Shown here piece by piece: positions 16,534 through 32,419 of a DNA stretch of 64,000 bases. Origin of the DNA: a virus (lineage: Duplodnaviria; Caudoviricetes). Numbering within the stretch: the stretch's first letter is position 1; the number at the start of each line of letters is the position of its first letter. The translations under genes and the position numbers were made by a program. The notes under the pieces were generated by a model that saw only the letters and a list, made by a program, of their open reading frames with translations, was not told the DNA's origin and did no database searches. The stretch spans positions 1-64,000 of the IMG/VR virus record IMGVR_UViG_3300007754_000007; one strand, written 5' to 3'.

Positions 16534-16611
16534 TGGTCGGGGAGACAGGATTTGAACCTGCGAACCTCCTGGTCCCAAACCAGGCGCCCTACCAGACTGG
16601 GCCACACCCCG
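16534..16611 (-). tRNA. tRNA-Pro(TGG)
   Basis: CCTGG-TT-TGG-GA-CCAGG, CCA. Confidence 0.9.
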
Positions 16612-17979: not shown

Positions 17980-18007
17980 TGGTAGGCCCTAGGGACTCGA
18001 ACCCAGG
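17980..18007 (-). pseudogene. orphan tRNA 3' fragment (T-arm, acceptor strand, CCA)
   Basis: CCTGGGTTCGAGTCCCTAGGGCCTACCA with no 5' half. Confidence 0.65.
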
Positions 18008-18014
18008 ATGGAGA

Positions 18015-18359
18015 TGGGTCTTCTGGGGATTGAACCCAGGACCGGCGGATTACGTCCCAGCACACGGTTTCTCGTGCCACCTCGAAGGGGCTTGCTGGGC
18101 TGGACTATCTCATCACCCGTTCTGGGTGTCGCACGTATAGTCTCTGAGGGCTCTCCCAATCCCAGGATCCGTCTTCCCTCTCGGGATCCCGTCTGTAGGG
18201 GTTGCCTGCTGATTGCCCAATCCCCGACACTGTCACGCGAAGGGGCGTGGTCGGGGCTCTCAGGGTGTTCCAGCATACAGTGCGATGTTCACCTCAGTAT
18301 TCCTACTGAGGGCTTCCATTTTCGAAAGTCCGCTGCTCTCCCAACTGAGCTAAAGACCC
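18015..18359 (-). tRNA. tRNA-Lys(TTT) split by a group I intron (exons 18325-18359 and 18015-18052)
   Basis: joined exons give GCGGA-CT-TT^T-AA-TCCGC and a complete cloverleaf. Confidence 0.9.
18053..18324 (-). ncRNA. group I self-splicing intron (272 nt, no internal ORF)
   Basis: P TATGCTGGAA, Q AATCAGCAGG, R TCAGAGACTA, S GATGAGATAGTCC, terminal G; P1 with U.G pair at the 5' splice site. Confidence 0.9.
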
Positions 18360-18956
18360 AAGAAGTTCTGTAACAAAAGTGGTGCGTTCCTCCCCCTGGA
18401 GCTTCTGGAACTCCGACCATCGAACCCGGACAACCCGCCACCCACAGGCTTTGAGTTTTTCTGTCCTCCTCTGGTCGTGCCCTACAAGCCGAGGATCGAG
18501 ATAGTGCTGCTCTCCATCTATCTCGAGATCTACTCGTACATCGGGAAACGCGAAATCGAGACGATACGTGCCGAGGGGGAACTGTTCTTCAAACACAAGA
18601 CCTGCATTCTCTAAACACGTCTTCCAGTAGATCTCAGGATAGCTGGGTCCTTTGCTGTAGTGATTCACCGCGTACCCTGCACGCGAGGGGTTGTCCTGGA
18701 TGAACTTCCGCAGGGAGAGGCTTATCTTCTCGCGGGTCTCGGGGCTGTGTCTTCTTCGCTTCCCGGCGGCAGAAAACTTCTGTCTGATTTCTTCAGGCCA
18801 GGTTTCCCAGGTCCCTTTTGTGAACTGGTTCTGTCCTTTCTTCCCCAACATCCCCCGAGGATGCTCGGCTCGGTCCGGATTTTCCCGACATAGCCGCTCG
18901 TGCTGTGCTTTGGAGTTCCTGTTCTTCCGGGGAGATCCGCAGTATTGACATTCCAT
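18303..18956 (-). CDS. free-standing endonuclease (NUMOD3-like motif plus DUF559/Vsr-like domain)
   Basis: RHSPETREKIS; YRLDFAFPDVRVDLEIDGEQH...DQRRTEKLKACGWRVVRVRW. Confidence 0.85.
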   Translation of the reverse strand: MECQYCGSPRKNRNSKAQHERLCRENPDRAEHPRGMLGKKGQNQFTKGTWETWPEEIRQKFSAAGKRRRHSPETREKISLSLRKFIQDNPSRAGYAVNHYSKGPSYPEIYWKTCLENAGLVFEEQFPLGTYRLDFAFPDVRVDLEIDGEQHYLDPRLVGHDQRRTEKLKACGWRVVRVRWSEFQKLQGEERTTFVTELLGSLAQLGEQRTFENGSPQ

Positions 18957-20006: not shown

Positions 20007-20070
20007 AATGGTGGGAGCGCCTTGGTGTCCTGGAGATTCGCATGCAATCCCAGGGACTCTCCCAAAAATC

Positions 20071-20955
20071 CTATAGGCCCCGTCGGTATTTCCTTCCCTT
20101 CTGCCAACCTTCTACAAGCCATTTGGGGAGCTCGTGTTCCCGAACTCTCTTGGCCTGTCCAGAAGGGCCACACACCCAAACCCGAGGGGCCATTCCTTTT
20201 CTCCATCCCAAGGCTGTAACCCTCTGGGCCTCCTCCGGAGAGACTTTCCTCTCTTCTTGACCCAAATGGACCCAACAGAATCCCTTGGTCAGAGAAGGCT
20301 TGCCTTGTAGGTGTCTCTTGGCTGCTTTGGATATCTTTAGGCGGCCTTCAGGGGAGATTTTACAAGCGCGTCCGAGTACCCACCCCCGTCTCTGCATTTC
20401 TTCCAGGTCTCCCGGAAGAATGAGAGATTCCCCCTGTTCTGTGTGATTGACATAGATCCTTCCAACAGGATCGGGACGGATTCTTGACAGAAGGGGTGTC
20501 ATTTTCTCTCTGAACCGAGGCCCCCGCCCCCGCTTCCAACCCAGAACCATCCACTCCCCGACCACTTCCTTCCGGACCTTCCGAGGTTTCTCGCCTTCCA
20601 TCCAGACCCAGACCTTTCCGTACTGAGAGTTCTTTGGGCCCTTCTGGGCGTCGTACCAGCCGGGGCTCTCCACACCTCCTTCCATCAAGTTGTAGGTATC
20701 GGCGCGCTTGGCGAAGGCTGCTGTTACGAGCTCCTTCTCCTTCGCATAGGCTTCGGATCGGGTCTCGAAAATGAACAGGACTTCCTTGGTGAACTGGTCT
20801 CGCCCGTGCTTCAAGATGGCGGACTGGAGTACGGAACCGGATCCGAGGTAGGCGTCGTTGGGGTCCCGGGTCTTGTGGACTCCGATGTAAATCTTTCCGT
20901 TGGCGAGACAGGTCGTTCTGTAGACGGTGAAAACGACAGGAGGTAGGGAAGACAT
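20071..20955 (-). CDS. GIY-YIG (Seg-like) homing endonuclease 1
   Basis: [17 protein letters not shown]...YLGSG...E...YNL; four W-x-GW-x-x-GR-type repeats. Confidence 0.92.
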   Translation of the reverse strand: MSSLPPVVFTVYRTTCLANGKIYIGVHKTRDPNDAYLGSGSVLQSAILKHGRDQFTKEVLFIFETRSEAYAKEKELVTAAFAKRADTYNLMEGGVESPGWYDAQKGPKNSQYGKVWVWMEGEKPRKVRKEVVGEWMVLGWKRGRGPRFREKMTPLLSRIRPDPVGRIYVNHTEQGESLILPGDLEEMQRRGWVLGRACKISPEGRLKISKAAKRHLQGKPSLTKGFCWVHLGQEERKVSPEEAQRVTALGWRKGMAPRVWVCGPSGQAKRVREHELPKWLVEGWQKGRKYRRGL

Positions 20956-20988: not shown

Positions 20989-21047
20989 CGAACCCCCGGC
21001 CTCCGGAGTGACAGTCCGGTGCTACCTGCCAGCTGAGCTACATCCCC
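20989..21047 (-). pseudogene. tRNA-Asp(GTC) truncated at the T-loop
   Basis: CCGGA-CT-GTC-AC-TCCGG, ends at TTCG; no matching 3' strand found. Confidence 0.85.
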
Positions 21048-22571: not shown

Positions 22572-22647
22572 TGGAAGGGGTGGCCGGATTCGAACCAGTC
22601 TCCTCGAGGGCCAGAACCTCGTGTGCTGCCAGTTACACCACACCCCT
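22572..22647 (-). tRNA. tRNA-Gln(CTG)
   Basis: CGAGG-TT-CTG-GC-CCTCG, CCA. Confidence 0.9.
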
Positions 22648-23013: not shown

Positions 23014-23526
23014 ATGACCTATCGGAATCTCCGAACCCTGCTCGCCGAAGAAGGGATTCTCACCACCGCCTCTCCGCGAGGAGGTATGAAGCGGTTCAAG
23101 GTCCAATCTCGAGGAGGGAAGGGAACTGTCCTCCTGACCCCCGCCCAGGCCAAGCTTCTCAAGCTGGTTCCGGGAGGTCGGGGACGGCGCTGGGAGGTCG
23201 CGTTCTTCCGAGGCTACGTTCGGGGTGTCGTGTGGGAGAGGGAGGCTCGGAACCCGTCGGAGACTCCCCACAAGAAGCTTCGACAGGCGGAATCCATGGG
23301 CCTCTCCAAGCTGCCCAGGGAAGGGAGCAAGAGAAGGTTCCGGGATACCGAGGGGAACATCATCTCGTTCGACTTCTTCGAAGGCCTCATCCACGGAAGC
23401 CGCTACTCGATTGATCTCCGGTTCTACATGCCGATGGAGCTGGAAGAAGACCAGGCGCGGGACAACCGCGAAAGGGAACGGAGGAACCCCACGCCCCCTA
23501 TTCCTCAGCCTTCGAACACCTGGTAG
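23014..23526 (+). CDS. protein with LRxxLAEEG leader
   Basis: begins MTYRNLRTLLAEEGIL; AGGAG RBS. Confidence 0.7.
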   Translation: MTYRNLRTLLAEEGILTTASPRGGMKRFKVQSRGGKGTVLLTPAQAKLLKLVPGGRGRRWEVAFFRGYVRGVVWEREARNPSETPHKKLRQAESMGLSKLPREGSKRRFRDTEGNIISFDFFEGLIHGSRYSIDLRFYMPMELEEDQARDNRERERRNPTPPIPQPSNTW

Positions 23527-23721: not shown

Positions 23722-24069
23722 ATGTCGATCCAAGAGGACACCCAAGCGGTTCGCCAAGCAATGAAGGACCTGGGCATCCAGAAGGAGGCCTCTTGGGCTG
23801 CCCTCTGGGAGCGAGTCAAAGAGGCTCTGAGCGGAATCCCCGGTCTCAAGGTGGCAGCGCGCCATACCGACAAGGTCGACCCGAACTCCATGACGAACAT
23901 CTACTTCGGCCAGGGAGACCACAGCGCCTTCTACCTGATCACTCGCCACGCAGCGTGCCGGAAGAAGAACCAGATCGACAGGGCCCTCCGGGATGCTCTT
24001 CAGACGGACGAAGAGCGGTGGCTTGAGTCCGAGTGCTACCGGATGGTCCCCACTCGAGGGATCCTGTAG
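23722..24069 (+). CDS. hypothetical protein
   Basis: AAGGAGG RBS, MSIQED start. Confidence 0.65.
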   Translation: MSIQEDTQAVRQAMKDLGIQKEASWAALWERVKEALSGIPGLKVAARHTDKVDPNSMTNIYFGQGDHSAFYLITRHAACRKKNQIDRALRDALQTDEERWLESECYRMVPTRGIL

Positions 24070-24071
24070 GG

Positions 24072-24389
24072 CTACCCGTCGGCAACGGGCGTCGTCAGGA
24101 GATGGGCTGCGGCAAGTCTCTCCAGAACCCGCTCGGTCTCCTGAACCAGCCAGTCCAAGCCATCTTGCGAGTAGACGTCAATGGAGTTGGAGACCCTGAG
24201 GTCTCCGGCGTCGTGGTCTGCGGTGACCAGAACGAGGGCAACCCCGTGGACTCGGTTCCCCTTTGGGATCTCTGCAACTGCCTTGGCCAGAGTCTTGGAC
24301 AGGATCCGAGGATCGTATAGCTCCTCCGCTGAGAGGGCTCCCAGGTCGTCCAAGGCTTCCTGTAGAGTCTCAGGCAAAGGAGCAATCAT
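24072..24389 (-). CDS. hypothetical protein
   Basis: MIAPLP start just after tRNA-Pro, AAGGA RBS. Confidence 0.6.
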   Translation of the reverse strand: MIAPLPETLQEALDDLGALSAEELYDPRILSKTLAKAVAEIPKGNRVHGVALVLVTADHDAGDLRVSNSIDVYSQDGLDWLVQETERVLERLAAAHLLTTPVADG

Positions 24390-24406
24390 AGGTGTCGTCC
24401 TTGAAG

Positions 24407-24483
24407 TGGTCGGGGCGGCCGGATTCGAACCTGCGACCGCTCGGCCCCCAGCCGAGTGCGCTGCCAGACTGCGCCACTCTCCG
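24407..24483 (-). tRNA. tRNA-Pro(GGG), apparently chimeric
   Basis: CTCGG-CT-GGG-GG-CCGAG; two acceptor mismatches and one T-stem mismatch. Confidence 0.8.
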
Positions 24484-25424
24484 AATTTAGCGTCTCTTCT
24501 TCGAGCCCATTCCACGGACCCAACCCTCTTGGGAGTACCTCGTAAATTGGGTGGCTGGGATTTTACGTCGGGACCCAGAATTGTTGTGTATCCAGACACA
24601 CCCCCATTGAGAGTGTGTTTCCCCAGGCCTTCCACACTCTGGTCTTTTAGACCCTTTGTCGGGACTTTCCCTACCTCCCCGTGCCCATCCTTGACCTAAA
24701 TATGCCTTGACCTCGTTGTCTGAGACATACTTGTAAACCCCATCTCGGTTCATGAGGGTTTTGCCTTTTGAGAAAGGCTCAACACCCTTCCGCGCTTGGG
24801 AGATAGTTTTCCGGAACTTTGGGCTCCCTCCTGTCTCCCATCCCTTCTCCAGATAGGTTTGGAGATCTTGGGGAGGCACATATTTCATGTTTTCCCCGAG
24901 ATGGATACAAACCCGGCCCTTTTCCAAGGGGGGTGGGACAGGACGCTTGAAGTTGGGCCCTCTACCGCGAGACCATCCTTCCGCCAGAAACTGTCCCAGA
25001 TCTTCTTTTTTGACCTTGCGAGGCTTCTCGCCCTCCGCCCATATCCAGACAGTTCCGTGAGAGGGGTTTTTGGATCCCCGACGATCCCTGTACCAACCAG
25101 GGCCCTCCACTCCTCCTGCCATCACGTTGTAGGTGTCTGCCCGCTTGGCGAACGCTGCGGTGACGAGTTCCTTTTCCTTGGCGTATGCCTCAGCACGGGT
25201 CTCGTAGATGAACAGGATCTCCTTGGTGAAATGGTCTCGACCATACTTCTTCACGGCAGCGGAGATCAGCTTCCCTGAGCCCAGGTACGTGTCATGGGGG
25301 TTCCGCGTCTTGTGAACCCCGATGTAGATCTTCCCGTTGACCAGACAGGTTGTTTTGTAGACGGTGAAGACGGCAGGAGGCTTGGTAGGCATACCCTACA
25401 AGGGCGATAGTCAATCCAAAACGG
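24426..25424 (-). mobile_element. GIY-YIG plus tRNA 5' part, inserted in the T-loop of tRNA-Pro(GGG)
   Basis: excising 24426-25424 restores a fully paired tRNA-Pro; GGTTCG is repeated at both ends. Confidence 0.75.
24487..25392 (-). CDS. GIY-YIG homing endonuclease 2
   Basis: [17 protein letters not shown]; four GW repeats. Confidence 0.92.
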
Positions 25425-25482
25425 CGAACCGACGATCTCCTGTCCCCCAGACAGGCGCGCTACCAGACTGCGCTACACCCCG
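25425..25482 (-). pseudogene. tRNA-Pro(GGG) 5' part truncated at the T-loop
   Basis: CCTGT-CT-GGG-GG-ACAGG, ends GTCGGTTCG^. Confidence 0.85.
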
Positions 25483-25525
25483 TAGTTGGACCGCCTATTC
25501 CCGTGTACGTAGGTGGAGGCGTCGC

Positions 25526-25867
25526 ATGAAAAATCTGAGACGGATACTGGCTGAGGAGGGGATTTCGGATCCTATTCCGGTTCTCCGAGAACAGCACCGA
25601 GAACTCGAAAGCCAGATCCTTCGGTTCGAAGGATCTCCCGGCCCTGGAGGGGCTCGTAGGCTTCTTCAGTTCATCCTTCAACACCTACCTGAACACTTCC
25701 GACTGGAGGAGTCCAATGGGGTTTCTGGATGTCAATGCGATGAGCACCCAGGTATCCTCAATTCCGCTCGGGAGGCCCTTCAGATGAGCAATCCCTTACA
25801 GGCCACTCAGAGCTTGGTTCAGCGAATCCGAGAACATAAGTCTCGTGAAGAGGAAGCCTGGGTATGA
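25526..25867 (+). CDS. hemerythrin/HHE-like protein with LRRILAEEG leader
   Basis: EQH...HFRLEE...EH...HKSREE ligand pattern. Confidence 0.7.
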   Translation: MKNLRRILAEEGISDPIPVLREQHRELESQILRFEGSPGPGGARRLLQFILQHLPEHFRLEESNGVSGCQCDEHPGILNSAREALQMSNPLQATQSLVQRIREHKSREEEAWV

Positions 25868-26674: not shown

Positions 26675-27490
26675 TTACGTCCCTTGGCTGGTCGGAGAAA
26701 CCTTTGGTCGGGGAGTCCCGAGAGGCCAGCAAGATACGCAATGGTCCCGACCGCCTACGTTCCGCCACTTCCCATCTACCTCAACCCAGGTAGGGAAACG
26801 GGTCTCGCAGGAACCGCACTCATGGGAAGATTTTGGTTTCGGAGTCCTCGGTGGCTTGATCTTCCGCCCCCGGACCCAGCCTTGAGCCTTCCATTCAGGG
26901 AGTTCTGCTTTGGGGATCTTGCGGGACTTCTCCCCCAACTTGCATATCCAGGCTGTGCCGTGTTGAGAGTTCTTTTCTCCTCTATGAGTCCCTCGGTCAG
27001 CCATAGTGGTCTTCATCTTGGCTTTGGTCTCCTCGGAGTGCTTCCGACCCTTCCAAACATTTTGGAGATGTTTGGTGTTTTGGGCTCTGCGTTGTGCGGC
27101 CCATTCAGGGTCTTCCCAAAGCCTTTTTCGCGCTTCCGCCGCACGGAGAGAGATTCTTTTCCATTCCTCAGCGGTCCGGTTTTGAGCCACATAGCCCCAA
27201 CCACCATCCCCTCCAGGGCGGAGGTTGTAGGTGTCTGTTCTCTTGGCGAAGGCAGCGGTGACGAGACCCTTTTCCTTGGCATATGCCTCGACTCGGGTCT
27301 CGAAGATGAACAGGACTTCCTTCCGGAACTGATCCCGTCCGTATTTCTTGACAGCCAGGGAAATCAGATTCCCAGACCCAATGTATGCGTCGTTGGGATC
27401 CCGAGTCTTGTGGACTCCGATGTAGATCTTGCCGTTGACCAGGCACGTTGTTCGGTAGACTGTGAAGACGGGCTCGGGCAGGGTAGGCAT
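26675..27490 (-). CDS. GIY-YIG homing endonuclease 3 (NUMOD3, one GW repeat, Zn finger)
   Basis: [33 protein letters not shown]...CVSC. Confidence 0.92.
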   Translation of the reverse strand: MPTLPEPVFTVYRTTCLVNGKIYIGVHKTRDPNDAYIGSGNLISLAVKKYGRDQFRKEVLFIFETRVEAYAKEKGLVTAAFAKRTDTYNLRPGGDGGWGYVAQNRTAEEWKRISLRAAEARKRLWEDPEWAAQRRAQNTKHLQNVWKGRKHSEETKAKMKTTMADRGTHRGEKNSQHGTAWICKLGEKSRKIPKAELPEWKAQGWVRGRKIKPPRTPKPKSSHECGSCETRFPTWVEVDGKWRNVGGRDHCVSCWPLGTPRPKVSPTSQGT

Positions 27491-27522: not shown

Positions 27523-27663
27523 GGAGGCGTGGGGAGTCGAACCCCAAGGCTTGTAGACTGTTCGCGGAGGCTTGGGTTGAAAACCCAAGCGAGTGCGGCA
27601 GTGAGAGAAGACGTTAGTCTCCGGATCCAAATTCCGGCGCTGATCCAAACAGCTTTCACCCCC
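27523..27663 (-). ncRNA. 141-nt tRNA-like RNA (G3.U70 acceptor, TTG loop, 74-nt variable region)
   Basis: GGGGGTG/CGCCTCC, GCTG/CAGC, CCGGA-ATTTGGA-TCCGG, TGGGG-TTCGACT-CCCCA. Confidence 0.7.
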
Positions 27664-27667
27664 AAGA

Positions 27668-27729
27668 TGGCGCCTCTGGTAGGACTCTAACCTACGACCT
27701 CTCGATTCGCGGTCTGGTCCCGAAGAGGC
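27668..27729 (-). pseudogene. degenerate tRNA (Arg-like 3' half, CCA)
   Basis: CGAATCGAG AGGTC GTAGG TTAGAGT CCTAC CAGAGGC GCCA; GCCTCT 5' strand present, D-arm missing. Confidence 0.65.
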
Positions 27730-28418
27730 TGAGATGGTATCGAGTAGTAGAGACTCCGGTGATCCTCTATGGTAAACCATAGAGGTGTCGCGCCAAGAAC
27801 GCGCGCACGTTTTTCTAAAAGGACTCTCTTCTTCCCTTGTGATTCGTTGTAGCCCCTCCAGAATGCATTCTGCCGGGGATGGGCCCACATTTTACACTCT
27901 ACAAGAAAGGGTCCCTCCTCAGTCTCTATGTAGAAATCCGGGAGGTACCTGCGAGACACCCCAGTTTCATCCGTATAAGTGATGACTTCAGGGCACCTCT
28001 GTATTGAAGAAACCGTATGGTTCTTCTCGAACCATACCAAGCAAACGTATTCCAGTTTGCTGTCGCAACGGATAGGAGTTCCTTGGAAATCGTAGGTGCA
28101 CCGGATAGCTTGGGAGGATTCCTCCCCTGCTTGCAAGGAGGCTATTCTGCGTTTGGAAATAGCTTCCCTCCAAGCAGGATCCTTAGCCCGGTCTTTCATG
28201 CTGCAGGACCTTGAGCAGAATCGGTTGGTTTTCCTACTCCGAGGTCGGAACGGGGTTCCGCAAAAAGCGCAAGGGATCTTTGGCCTCTGCTTTTTCTGCT
28301 TCAACGTCTTGCTGACGCGAGCGTTGATATACCTTCGTGAGCAAGCCTTGGTGCAGAACCGCCCAGACCCATAATCCCCAGTGTGAGGTTTTCCACATTG
28401 TTCGCAGCTTTTCGTCAT
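27687..28418 (-). CDS. free-standing PD-(D/E)xK (TnsA-like) endonuclease with Zn fingers
   Basis: CEQC...FCTKAC, CAFC...FCSRSC, DSKLE...YLPDFYI...LVECK. Confidence 0.8.
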   Translation of the reverse strand: MTKSCEQCGKPHTGDYGSGRFCTKACSRRYINARVSKTLKQKKQRPKIPCAFCGTPFRPRSRKTNRFCSRSCSMKDRAKDPAWREAISKRRIASLQAGEESSQAIRCTYDFQGTPIRCDSKLEYVCLVWFEKNHTVSSIQRCPEVITYTDETGVSRRYLPDFYIETEEGPFLVECKMWAHPRQNAFWRGYNESQGKKRVLLEKRARVLGATPLWFTIEDHRSLYYSIPSQPLRDQTANREVVG

Positions 28419-28450
28419 CCCAACAGGTCTGAGTATAAACAAGTGAGTAG

Positions 28451-31140: not shown

Positions 31141-31446
31141 CTATCTCCTACGTTGGGCCTCTCGACGACGCGTCCTGTAGACCTTGGTCTTCCGGGCAGG
31201 ATCCTGCTTGGCAATCCACTGCACGGCCTTGGCATACTCAGGATTGGCTAACAGCCCCTCTACGCTGGCGAGACTGGATCCCTCGGCGGCCAACTCACGG
31301 TTCGAGAAGAACCGGTGAATCGTGGAATGACACATCGCACAGATGTCCACAGTGAGGTTCGGATCCACCTTCCTTGTTCGTAGGTGGTGCTCCGAGATCC
31401 TCCGCTCCGGTACGTCTCTCTTACAGAGCGGACAGTTCTGGGTCAT
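31141..31446 (-). CDS. small HNH endonuclease-like protein
   Basis: CPLC...EHHL...CAMCHSTIH. Confidence 0.75.
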   Translation of the reverse strand: MTQNCPLCKRDVPERRISEHHLRTRKVDPNLTVDICAMCHSTIHRFFSNRELAAEGSSLASVEGLLANPEYAKAVQWIAKQDPARKTKVYRTRRREAQRRR

Positions 31447-31461
31447 CGGATGTACCCGGGA

Positions 31462-32319
31462 TCAAGATTCTTTCCAGGTCTTTCCTCGGACAACGTGATG
31501 GATCGCCACATAGGAGACCTCAAACCGGGCGGCTAAAGACGCCTGTGTTGTCCCTCCCTCTCGATATATTCTCCGAATCTCACGTACCTTTTCCCAGGTG
31601 AGCTTGGCAAGAGGATGATTTTCCCCGGAAGAGGGCTGGCGGGTTTTAGGTGGTCTCCTCCCGAGACTCCATCCCTCTTGGAGCATAGCTTGGACTTCCG
31701 ATTCGAAGATCTTGCGGGCCATCCCTTTTGGAGGATGCATCCAAACCCGGTTCTGTCTCTGTTTACCCCTCCACCCTTGAGCTTCCCATTTCGGGACTTC
31801 TTCTGGAAGAACGTAGAGTGTCTCTGAGCCTTTGGACATCCGAACCTTCCCTTTGATCGGGGAAGGTCTCGGAGGCCCGCACCTTTTCCCACGCCCCCGC
31901 TTCCAACCCAGAACCATCCACTCCCCCACCACTTCCTTCCGGACCTTCCGGGGCTTCTCTCCCCCCATCCAAATCCATACTGTTCCGTGTTGGGAGTTCT
32001 TTTCTCCCTTCTGGCCGTCGTACCAGCCTCCGATTGCCCCACCTTCTCTCAGGTTGTAGGTATCGGCGCGCTTGGCGAAGGCAGCGGTGACGAGCTCCTT
32101 CTCCTTGGCGTATGCCTCGGCTCGAGACTCGAAAATGAACAGGACTTCCTTCTGGAACTGATCTCGCCCGTACTTCTTGACAGCCCGCGAGATCAGATTC
32201 CCTGAGCCCAGGTAACGGTCGTCGGGGTCTCGAGTCTTGTGAACGCCGATGTAAATCTTGCCGTTGGCAAGGCAGGTCGTTTGATAGACGGTGTAGACGG
32301 CAGGAGGTTTGGTAGGCAT
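31462..32319 (-). CDS. GIY-YIG homing endonuclease 4 (three GW repeats, C-terminal HTH)
   Basis: [17 protein letters not shown]; AKLTWEKVREIR...LAARFEVS...KTWK. Confidence 0.92.
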   Translation of the reverse strand: MPTKPPAVYTVYQTTCLANGKIYIGVHKTRDPDDRYLGSGNLISRAVKKYGRDQFQKEVLFIFESRAEAYAKEKELVTAAFAKRADTYNLREGGAIGGWYDGQKGEKNSQHGTVWIWMGGEKPRKVRKEVVGEWMVLGWKRGRGKRCGPPRPSPIKGKVRMSKGSETLYVLPEEVPKWEAQGWRGKQRQNRVWMHPPKGMARKIFESEVQAMLQEGWSLGRRPPKTRQPSSGENHPLAKLTWEKVREIRRIYREGGTTQASLAARFEVSYVAIHHVVRGKTWKES

Positions 32320-32351: not shown

Positions 32352-32419
32352 CGAACTGACAAACTCACAAGGAGCGACGCATTTTAAGTGCGATGTGTAG
32401 ACCCTTCCACCACGGGGGC
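32352..32419 (-). pseudogene. tRNA-Leu(TAA) truncated at the T-loop
   Basis: CGCA-CT-TAA-AA-TGCG, long variable arm, ends at TTCG. Confidence 0.85.

Follow-up and report, generated by a model that had tools for sequence, protein, structure and literature searches.

Seg-type homing endonucleases are known from phage transfer RNA (tRNA) clusters; that of phage T4 encodes one of them, the GIY-YIG nuclease SegB (excerpts of PMC2330249). According to the same excerpts, the SegB site spans 27 bp, its 5' part is the T-loop motif GGTTCRANTCC and recognition extends 3' from this motif; SegB cuts many tRNA genes at several points between GGTTCRANTCC and the CCA end, and its homing replaces flanking tRNA DNA. 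Excerpts of a 2026 paper (PMC13096335) report that SegB breaks drive rearrangement and amplification of the tRNA-segB unit with microhomology at the junction, and that SegB homologues are enriched beside tRNAs. Seg-type nucleases in phage tRNA clusters, their recognition of the universal T-loop sequence and the amplification of tRNA segments were known before this study. The words remnant, pseudogene and duplicat do not occur in the 2008 SegB paper (PMC2330249); our literature search for homing endonucleases with truncated tRNAs in phages found no paper, and a search for chimeric tRNAs with homing endonucleases returned nothing relevant, as judged by titles and the starts of abstracts. Here we describe a locus in the first 64,000 bases (the window, which is the whole stretch of DNA analysed) of the 72,260-base IMG/VR virus record IMGVR_UViG_3300007754_000007, with a guanine-plus-cytosine content of about 0.60. 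This locus has a GIY-YIG nuclease gene lodged within the T-loop of a tRNA-Pro(GGG) gene, where it separates canonical positions 57 and 58.

All features of the locus are on the minus strand. It starts with the first 58 nucleotides (nt) of a tRNA-Pro(GGG) gene (25425-25482, canonical positions 1-57), hereafter stump A, which was read from the sequence and is partially detected by Rfam (25420-25475, model positions 8-63, 26.5 bits, E-value 0.29). Stump A comprises the acceptor 5' strand CGGGGTG, the anticodon arm CCTGT/CTGGGGG/ACAGG and the T-stem 5' strand GTCGG, and it ends in the T-loop after GGTTCG in minus-strand reading. It is followed by a conserved 32-nt leader (25393-25424; pattern count and alignment), which begins CCGTTTTGGATTGACTATCG and runs from the T-loop break to the ATG of the nuclease gene. 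The nuclease gene is an intact open reading frame (ORF) of 301 amino acids (aa) for a Seg-like GIY-YIG homing endonuclease (24487-25392), assigned by Pfam, PHROGs and matches to Seg-like genes. After a 3-nt ATT spacer (24484-24486, read from the sequence) comes a complete 77-nt tRNA-Pro(GGG) (24407-24483), hereafter the chimera, found by ARAGORN and by Rfam RF00005 with 43.2 bits against a gathering score of 29. Its 5' part, hereafter B, is the 58-nt 5' part of a diverged tRNA-Pro(GGG) (24426-24483), identified by alignments to stump A and to Ferruginivarius. Its 3' part is the 19-nt A-type sequence AATCCGGCCGCCCCGACCA (24407-24425, positions 58-76), which by pairing and by alignment to Minicystis belongs to stump A. 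The insert between the stump and this 3' part is 999 nt long (24426-25424) and consists of the leader, the nuclease gene and B; it terminates at position 57 of B and meets the resident 3' part in register. GGTTCG forms a direct repeat at the insert junctions, with the left copy at 25425-25430 and the right copy at 24426-24431 (both read from the sequence), and each of the two junctions lies within the conserved motif GGTTCGAATCC. The chimera retains C1-G72 and A73 and is the sole Pro(GGG) tRNA of the entire record. The initial annotation had described the insert as leader, nuclease and positions 1-57 of a different tRNA with the same anticodon, and this description is borne out by the layout, by Pfam and by the alignment to natural tRNAs. 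A promoter and terminator scan of 24000-25800 gave nothing exceeding shuffles.

Analysis of the acceptor and T-stem of the chimera revealed 9 of 12 pairs, with mismatches at A4:C69, A6:G67 and A51:G63. This is the lowest value among the 18 tRNAs of the window, 13 of which have 12/12 pairs and the other four 10 or 11. Stump A and the 3' end of the chimera form 12/12 pairs, two of them G.U, and 12/12 pairs were reached by just 3 of the 360 combinations of a 5' part with a non-self 3' part in the window. In silico deletion of 24426-25424 gave a 77-nt RNA with a cloverleaf as its minimum-energy fold (-34.3 kcal/mol). The minimum-energy fold of the chimera is not a cloverleaf (-32.1 kcal/mol), and a cloverleaf imposed on it has -26.2 kcal/mol. 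The pairing and its coordinates had already been put forward in the initial annotation, together with the restoration of one well-paired tRNA by removal of 24426-25424, and both claims hold. Its further proposal that the insertion may restore function is not supported by a product that is the worst-paired tRNA of the array and whose minimum-energy fold is not a cloverleaf. With three stem mismatches, the chimera is probably a weakened tRNA or a pseudogene. Stump A and B are identical at 43 of 58 positions (15 differences) and their differences in the anticodon stem are compensatory; B is therefore considered a genuine diverged 5' part of a tRNA-Pro(GGG).

Comparison with natural tRNAs revealed relatives of both types. 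The anticodon arm and variable loop of stump A also occur in the tRNA-Pro(GGG) of Minicystis rosea, whose 3' end, AATCCGGCCGCCCCGACC, is identical to the window 3' part over 18 nt. From the anticodon arm to the T-stem, the sequence of B is shared by two bacterial tRNA-Pro(GGG) genes, one from Ferruginivarius sediminum and one from a Limimonas metagenome-assembled genome, and B is identical to the Ferruginivarius gene at 54 of 58 positions (hand count on the alignment). These two genes are the closest full-length look-alikes of B and carry the 3' end AATCCTGCCGCTCCGACCA; the window 3' part is identical to that of the B-like Ferruginivarius gene at 17 of 19 positions. A-type and B-type 3' ends are told apart at only three positions (63, 67 and 69), and the window 3' part is A type at every one of them. 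The switch from B to A lies between positions 51 and 63, within GGTTCGAATCC, the motif that these two positions bracket. None of 185,579 genomes contained a B-type tRNA whose 3' strand is the perfect complement that we had inferred, and a looser B pattern was found in two. Because the 3' part is A type at all diagnostic positions and the stump lacks exactly that part, the downstream tRNA-Pro(GGG) is, as judged from these alignments, a chimera, which is far likelier than three chance substitutions. Ferruginivarius and Limimonas (L195 and L196), as the nearest full-length relatives of B, also give a weak hint at the source of B or at the host lineage.

The junction at the left end of the insert is not unique to this locus. 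The pattern TTCG/CC(A/G)TTTT(G/A)G.TTG.CTATCG, where the slash marks the break, has three matches in the window against 0 expected, and TTCG/CC(A/G)TTTT is identical behind three different tRNA 5' parts, namely Pro(GGG), Asp(GTC) and Leu(TAA). The sister stump of tRNA-Asp(GTC) covers positions 1-57 (20989-21047, minus strand) and is followed by a GIY-YIG nuclease gene of 294 aa (20071-20955, minus strand; 76% DNA identity over the first ~420 nt). The sister stump of tRNA-Leu(TAA) is a 5' part with a long variable arm (32352-32419, minus strand) and is followed by a GIY-YIG nuclease gene of 285 aa (31462-32319, minus strand; 77% DNA identity). Both stumps, identified by pattern and alignment, have the same junction of TTCG and leader, and all three insertion junctions lie inside the GGTTCRANTCC motif. 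The three nuclease genes with a T-loop junction share 76-79% DNA identity over the first ~420 nt, and their C-terminal parts have diverged. A fourth paralogous GIY-YIG nuclease gene, of 271 aa (26675-27490, minus strand), was identified by sequence comparison and Pfam; here a complete T-arm with the acceptor 3' strand, and not a T-loop break, precedes the leader. No 3' partner of the Asp or the Leu stump was found in the 72,260-base record by a pairing scan and a T-loop motif scan; the element thus does not regularly regenerate its target.

The surroundings of the three paralogues showed further tRNA-like debris and ORFs, all on the minus strand. A 55-nt minihelix (20009-20063) starts 7 nt past the stop codon of the Asp-associated nuclease gene. 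It combines an acceptor-like stem of 7 bp, one position of which is mismatched, with a single long hairpin and ends in ACCA, and its fold has -22.5 kcal/mol (z -2.0); it starts GGGAGAGT, and B starts likewise CGGAGAGT. This minihelix may represent a collapsed tRNA. The Leu-associated GIY-YIG gene is immediately followed by a 101-aa ORF (31141-31446) with an HNH-like Cys/His pattern by eye (..CPLC..EHHL..CAMCH) and no Pfam or PHROGs match. The 147-nt stretch upstream of the fourth GIY-YIG gene (27530-27676) holds the 5' part of a Gln(UUG)-like tRNA; it also has another anticodon-like hairpin, with UUUUCAA in its loop, and, lacking CCA, a complete T-arm with the acceptor 3' strand. This stretch has no Rfam match on the minus strand and resembles stacked tRNA debris or an odd, long tRNA-like RNA.

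The uninterrupted 301-aa ORF matched PF19835 SegE_GIY-YIG with 27.6 bits (cut-off 25), PF01541 GIY-YIG with 20.7 bits, slightly under the cut-off of 22.6, and phrog_314 'homing endonuclease' with an E-value of 1.9e-33. It also matches Seg-like genes of T4-like phages. The matches listed for the protein are named Seg-like, SegD or generic homing endonuclease, with 28-50% identity, and none of those listed is named SegB. On the strength of these matches the predicted nuclease is Seg-like but distant. Residues Y12, Y23-I24-G25, R30, E73 and N89, which we take to be the catalytic residues by analogy with I-TevI, are invariant across all four paralogues of the window. The C-terminal part of the protein consists, by eye, of repeated W..GW.RG-like modules.

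A search of IMG/VR with the nuclease protein gave 188 relatives, from which 80 loci were kept; the locus counts below cover those 80. The best relative has 64% identity over 89 N-terminal residues, and the leader and the C-terminal part are absent from all IMG/VR nuclease relatives found. Neither the exact leader pattern nor the B sequence had a match in IMG/VR, and the flanking 105-aa protein had no relatives. Many of the nuclease relatives likewise lie within tRNA arrays. A tRNA on the same strand within 300 nt downstream of the nuclease gene was found at 13 of the 80 loci, and at 11 of these 13 a complete, different tRNA is also present upstream. The usual layout among the relatives places the nuclease gene between two tRNAs, directly adjoining the second of them. 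The upstream flank resembled the downstream tRNA at none of the 13 loci, with local alignment scores of 6-13 against 28 in the window. Upstream T-loop motifs outside ARAGORN tRNAs were flagged among the kept loci, and in the six flagged loci inspected no T-loop-truncated stump joined to a leader was found: three (L029, L032 and L072) showed complete 3' ends of tRNA-like or transfer-messenger RNA (tmRNA)-like genes, and the sequences of the other three (L039, L063 and L079) are not tRNA-like. The 3' part with its flank was found in 99 metagenome stretches and the 3' part alone in six stretches of IMG/VR. These 105 copies, in 63 distinct forms, are bacterial-type tRNA-Pro genes or att-like 3' fragments, and the best 5' match to the stump among them is 49/58. 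Neither IMG/VR nor the metagenome set nor the genome set yielded a close relative of this phage. At L029, L032 and L020-L025, related GIY-YIG genes of other phages adjoin either sequences called permuted tmRNA by ARAGORN or tRNA-like 3' ends, the latter repeated on both flanks of the nuclease gene.

Other readings of the same features were weighed. The downstream tRNA could be a complete B-type tRNA-Pro that decayed by point mutation, with the stump as an unrelated leftover, that is, a neighbouring tRNA-Pro with a deleted 3' part. This would suit the departure of the window 3' part from the B-type bacterial 3' end at just 2 of 19 positions, the change at position 6 in the 5' part of B, and the single mismatches in other tRNAs of the array, i.e. 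Pro(TGG), Gln(CTG) and Leu(GAG). We nevertheless regard such decay as quite improbable: the base at all three diagnostic positions is the one that fits the stump, giving the 12/12 pairs, and the 3' part is identical to that of a natural A-type tRNA. By a rough reckoning, two random substitutions at exactly those sites and to those bases have a chance of less than 1 in 1000, and the stump lacks precisely the part that is found downstream. An origin of the pattern in assembly deserves mention for a metagenome-derived virus contig, in which the assembler might have mis-joined two tRNA-Pro alleles. It is hardly credible in view of the longest identical run of the two 5' parts, which at 11 nt (by eye) was judged too short for a mis-join, of the same T-loop/leader junction at two further sites behind other tRNAs, and of the intact 301-aa ORF. 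The perfect long-range complementarity of stump and 3' part would also be expected if the 999 nt were an intron or the spacer of a split tRNA, with the two parts joined after processing of the RNA, and a true group I intron does occur in another tRNA of the same array. Such a solution at the RNA level is very improbable. A search that finds this intron (18081-18335) detected no ribozyme or intron family in 24484-25424 even at E-values up to 10, the insert sits in the T-loop and not in the anticodon loop, the stretch of RNA in between consists of a translated ORF and then a tRNA-like 5' part, and the sister copies are without any 3' part.

The analysis shows the anatomy of the locus, its chimerism, the T-loop junctions in common and the family of the nuclease, and from these we infer the steps of a mechanism. 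In our judgement the locus is probably the scar of the repair of a nuclease-induced break, anchored in T-loops, with the chimeric tRNA as a by-product and not a built-in patch. In the donor, as in the usual layout, the nuclease gene would have lain directly before B, the tRNA-Pro(GGG) of the donor itself; the upstream and downstream tRNAs in 11 of 13 relatives represent the donor layout that the repair model requires. The nuclease, like T4 SegB, would recognise the T-loop sequence GGTTCRANTCC and make a double-strand break at or near the T-loop of the resident A gene. Repair of the break would copy or join a segment bounded by T-loop sequences, from the leader to the T-loop of B, homology being confined on one or both sides to the conserved T-loop, or the segment would be joined as a fragment released by cuts at two tRNAs. 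The resident A gene would thereby become an orphan 5' stump and a 19-nt 3' part fused to positions 1-57 of B. The shared anticodon would reflect allelic tRNA-Pro genes of two related phages, and in the Asp and Leu cases the right-hand repair would have used other homology, with loss of the 3' parts. The repair model would account for the direct GGTTCG repeat, the in-register fusion, the shared anticodon and the Asp and Leu cases.

Several points weigh against the repair model. The left junction, from the T-loop to CC(A/G)TTTT, is unexplained by simple T-loop homology with a complete upstream donor tRNA. The discrimination of A from B depends on positions 63, 67 and 69, and B itself carries one change, A6, compared with its bacterial look-alikes. 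No nuclease-free or donor allele was found in the searches described above, so that the direction and number of events are inferred from one genome, the direction by parsimony. Identity of the nuclease to named Seg proteins is at most ~50% and confined to the N-terminal domain, and its cleavage specificity for T-loops is assumed from SegB. The same anticodon in A and B fits allelic homing and equally a selected patch.

The last point leads to a self-patching cassette, i.e. a mobile unit that regularly carries a tRNA 5' part and by insertion in the T-loop regenerates a working tRNA gene. An insert that ends exactly at position 57 of a tRNA with the same anticodon, in register with the resident 3' part, is what such a unit would produce, and the chimera is above the Rfam threshold for tRNA, keeps C1-G72 and A73 and is the only Pro(GGG) tRNA in the record. 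We consider this reading unlikely, for two of the three T-loop insertions (Asp and Leu) regenerate nothing, the chimera has three uncompensated stem mismatches and a non-cloverleaf minimum-energy fold, and a stump like the downstream tRNA is present in none of the 13 related loci. Resistance to renewed cutting would presumably not be gained either, by analogy with SegB, since the presumed recognition region, the T-loop motif plus all 3' bases, is unchanged. The initial annotation had suggested a cleavage-resistant allele; this lacks support, as the chimera keeps GGTTCGAATCC and every base 3' of the motif, the region that SegB recognises according to excerpts of PMC2330249. Near the T-loop the chimera differs from the original gene only at two bases just 5' of GGTTC. 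It is likewise doubtful that the nuclease family as a whole moves as a cassette from T-loop to T-loop, in which the leader and the nuclease gene are followed by nt 1-57 of the adjoining downstream tRNA, and that its homing in any tRNA T-loop would recreate a mosaic tRNA gene of full length. If this were true, it would be the first homing element to make up for disruption of its target with a replacement 5' part supplied at the DNA level, and a driver of tRNA shuffling in giant-phage arrays.

The locus is part of a larger tRNA array. CheckV estimated the completeness of the record at 14%, which suggests that a very large phage is behind it. ARAGORN identified 18 tRNA genes in the window, every one on the minus strand, between 7.7 and 33.8 kb; at an 80% threshold it gave 96 calls, which for the most part are noise. 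Rfam agrees with the ARAGORN tRNAs and additionally detects a group I intron at 18081-18335. Nuclease genes are dense in the array and on the same strand as the tRNAs, and the array is colonised by several homing endonuclease genes.

Two other tRNA genes of the array, both on the minus strand, have features in common with the tRNA-Pro(GGG) parts. The tRNA-Pro(TGG) (16534-16611) has the acceptor 5' strand of the stump, CGGGGTG, and the 3' strand CTCCCCG, with a mismatch U6:U67; the 5' part of B forms 11/12 pairs with its 3' end, better than within the chimera. The tRNA-Gln(CTG) (22572-22647) has one T-stem mismatch and a wobble pair (ACTGG versus CCGGC) and shares TTCGAATCCGGC with the tRNA-Pro 3' part; it may be another short T-loop conversion tract.

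Other elements were also found in the array. The anticodon loop of a tRNA gene at 18013-18359 (minus strand) is interrupted by the group I intron 18081-18335 (Rfam, 57.9 bits). The exons of this gene, if spliced after U and after G, give a 76-nt tRNA assigned to Lys(UUU) by ARAGORN; the anticodon changes with the choice of junction, and the interrupted gene is absent from the ARAGORN list. Just upstream of this gene lies an ORF for a DUF559-type (Vsr-like) endonuclease (18303-18956, minus strand; Pfam E-value 4.7e-11), whose reading frame extends into the 5' exon of the tRNA and the beginning of the intron. The intron-containing tRNA is immediately followed by an orphan tRNA 3' fragment (~17980-18012, minus strand) that contains GGGTTCGAGTCCCTAGGGCCTACCA; 3' debris too thus exists in the array, and this fragment matches neither the Asp nor the Leu stump. 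A 244-aa ORF (27687-28421, minus strand) begins 29 nt after tRNA-Arg(ACG) and has a TnsA-like N-terminal match of 23.7 bits, below the Pfam cut-off, and a weak match to an HNH phrog. Its stop codon lies within a fragment resembling a tRNA 3' end (27668-27695, minus strand; GTAGG TTAGAGT CCTAC CAGAGGC G CCA). Small ORFs recur between the tRNAs (25526-25867 and 23014-23526 on the plus strand, and from ~31084 downward on the minus strand) and share the N-terminal motif ..LR(R/T)(I/L)LAEE(G/N)(I/L)..; one of them is weakly hemerythrin-like (Pfam, 22.7 bits, below cut-off).

On present evidence the locus does not reveal a new kind of system. It probably represents a natural footprint of what such nuclease breaks can leave, with a nuclease gene in a tRNA T-loop, orphan 5' stumps of three tRNAs and a mosaic tRNA of two alleles. 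If this pattern is general, the tRNA arrays of giant phages would acquire tRNA pseudogenes and chimeric tRNAs through T-loop-targeting nucleases, and this would be relevant for the annotation of these arrays and for the understanding of their turnover.

Comparison with group I introns of tRNA genes revealed a nuclease-bearing selfish element in a tRNA gene in both cases, and the array itself contains an example (18081-18335). In contrast to these introns, no ribozyme core was detected in the insert, the insertion is in the T-loop and not in the anticodon loop, and any restoration here would take place at the DNA level. Integrase islands and prophages resemble the locus in that a tRNA gene is interrupted by a mobile element that itself carries a partial copy of it, so that a full-length gene persists; many 3' fragments of the same tRNA-Pro type surfaced in our metagenome scan. 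Unlike in these islands, the 5' part and not the 3' part is duplicated here, the copy is 74% identical (43/58) to the part it replaced, the product is mismatched, and neither an integrase nor att-type site-specific recombination is seen; the GIY-YIG nuclease is the one insert ORF that was scanned against Pfam, and no recombinase was found in the insert. The parallel with integrase islands drawn in the initial annotation could not be upheld, given the lack of a recombinase in the insert, the Asp and Leu sisters that regenerate no tRNA and the 0 of 13 relatives that are patched. With SegB of T4 and T6 the nuclease has in common the GIY-YIG catalytic domain, the location in a phage tRNA array and the same orientation as the tRNAs, and the motif GGTTCRANTCC, as given in excerpts of the SegB literature, is the sequence at both junctions here. 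SegB is free-standing between genes, whereas the nuclease gene described here lies inside a tRNA gene at the T-loop, has left a 5' stump and a chimeric tRNA, and shares its junction with two paralogues, three in all.

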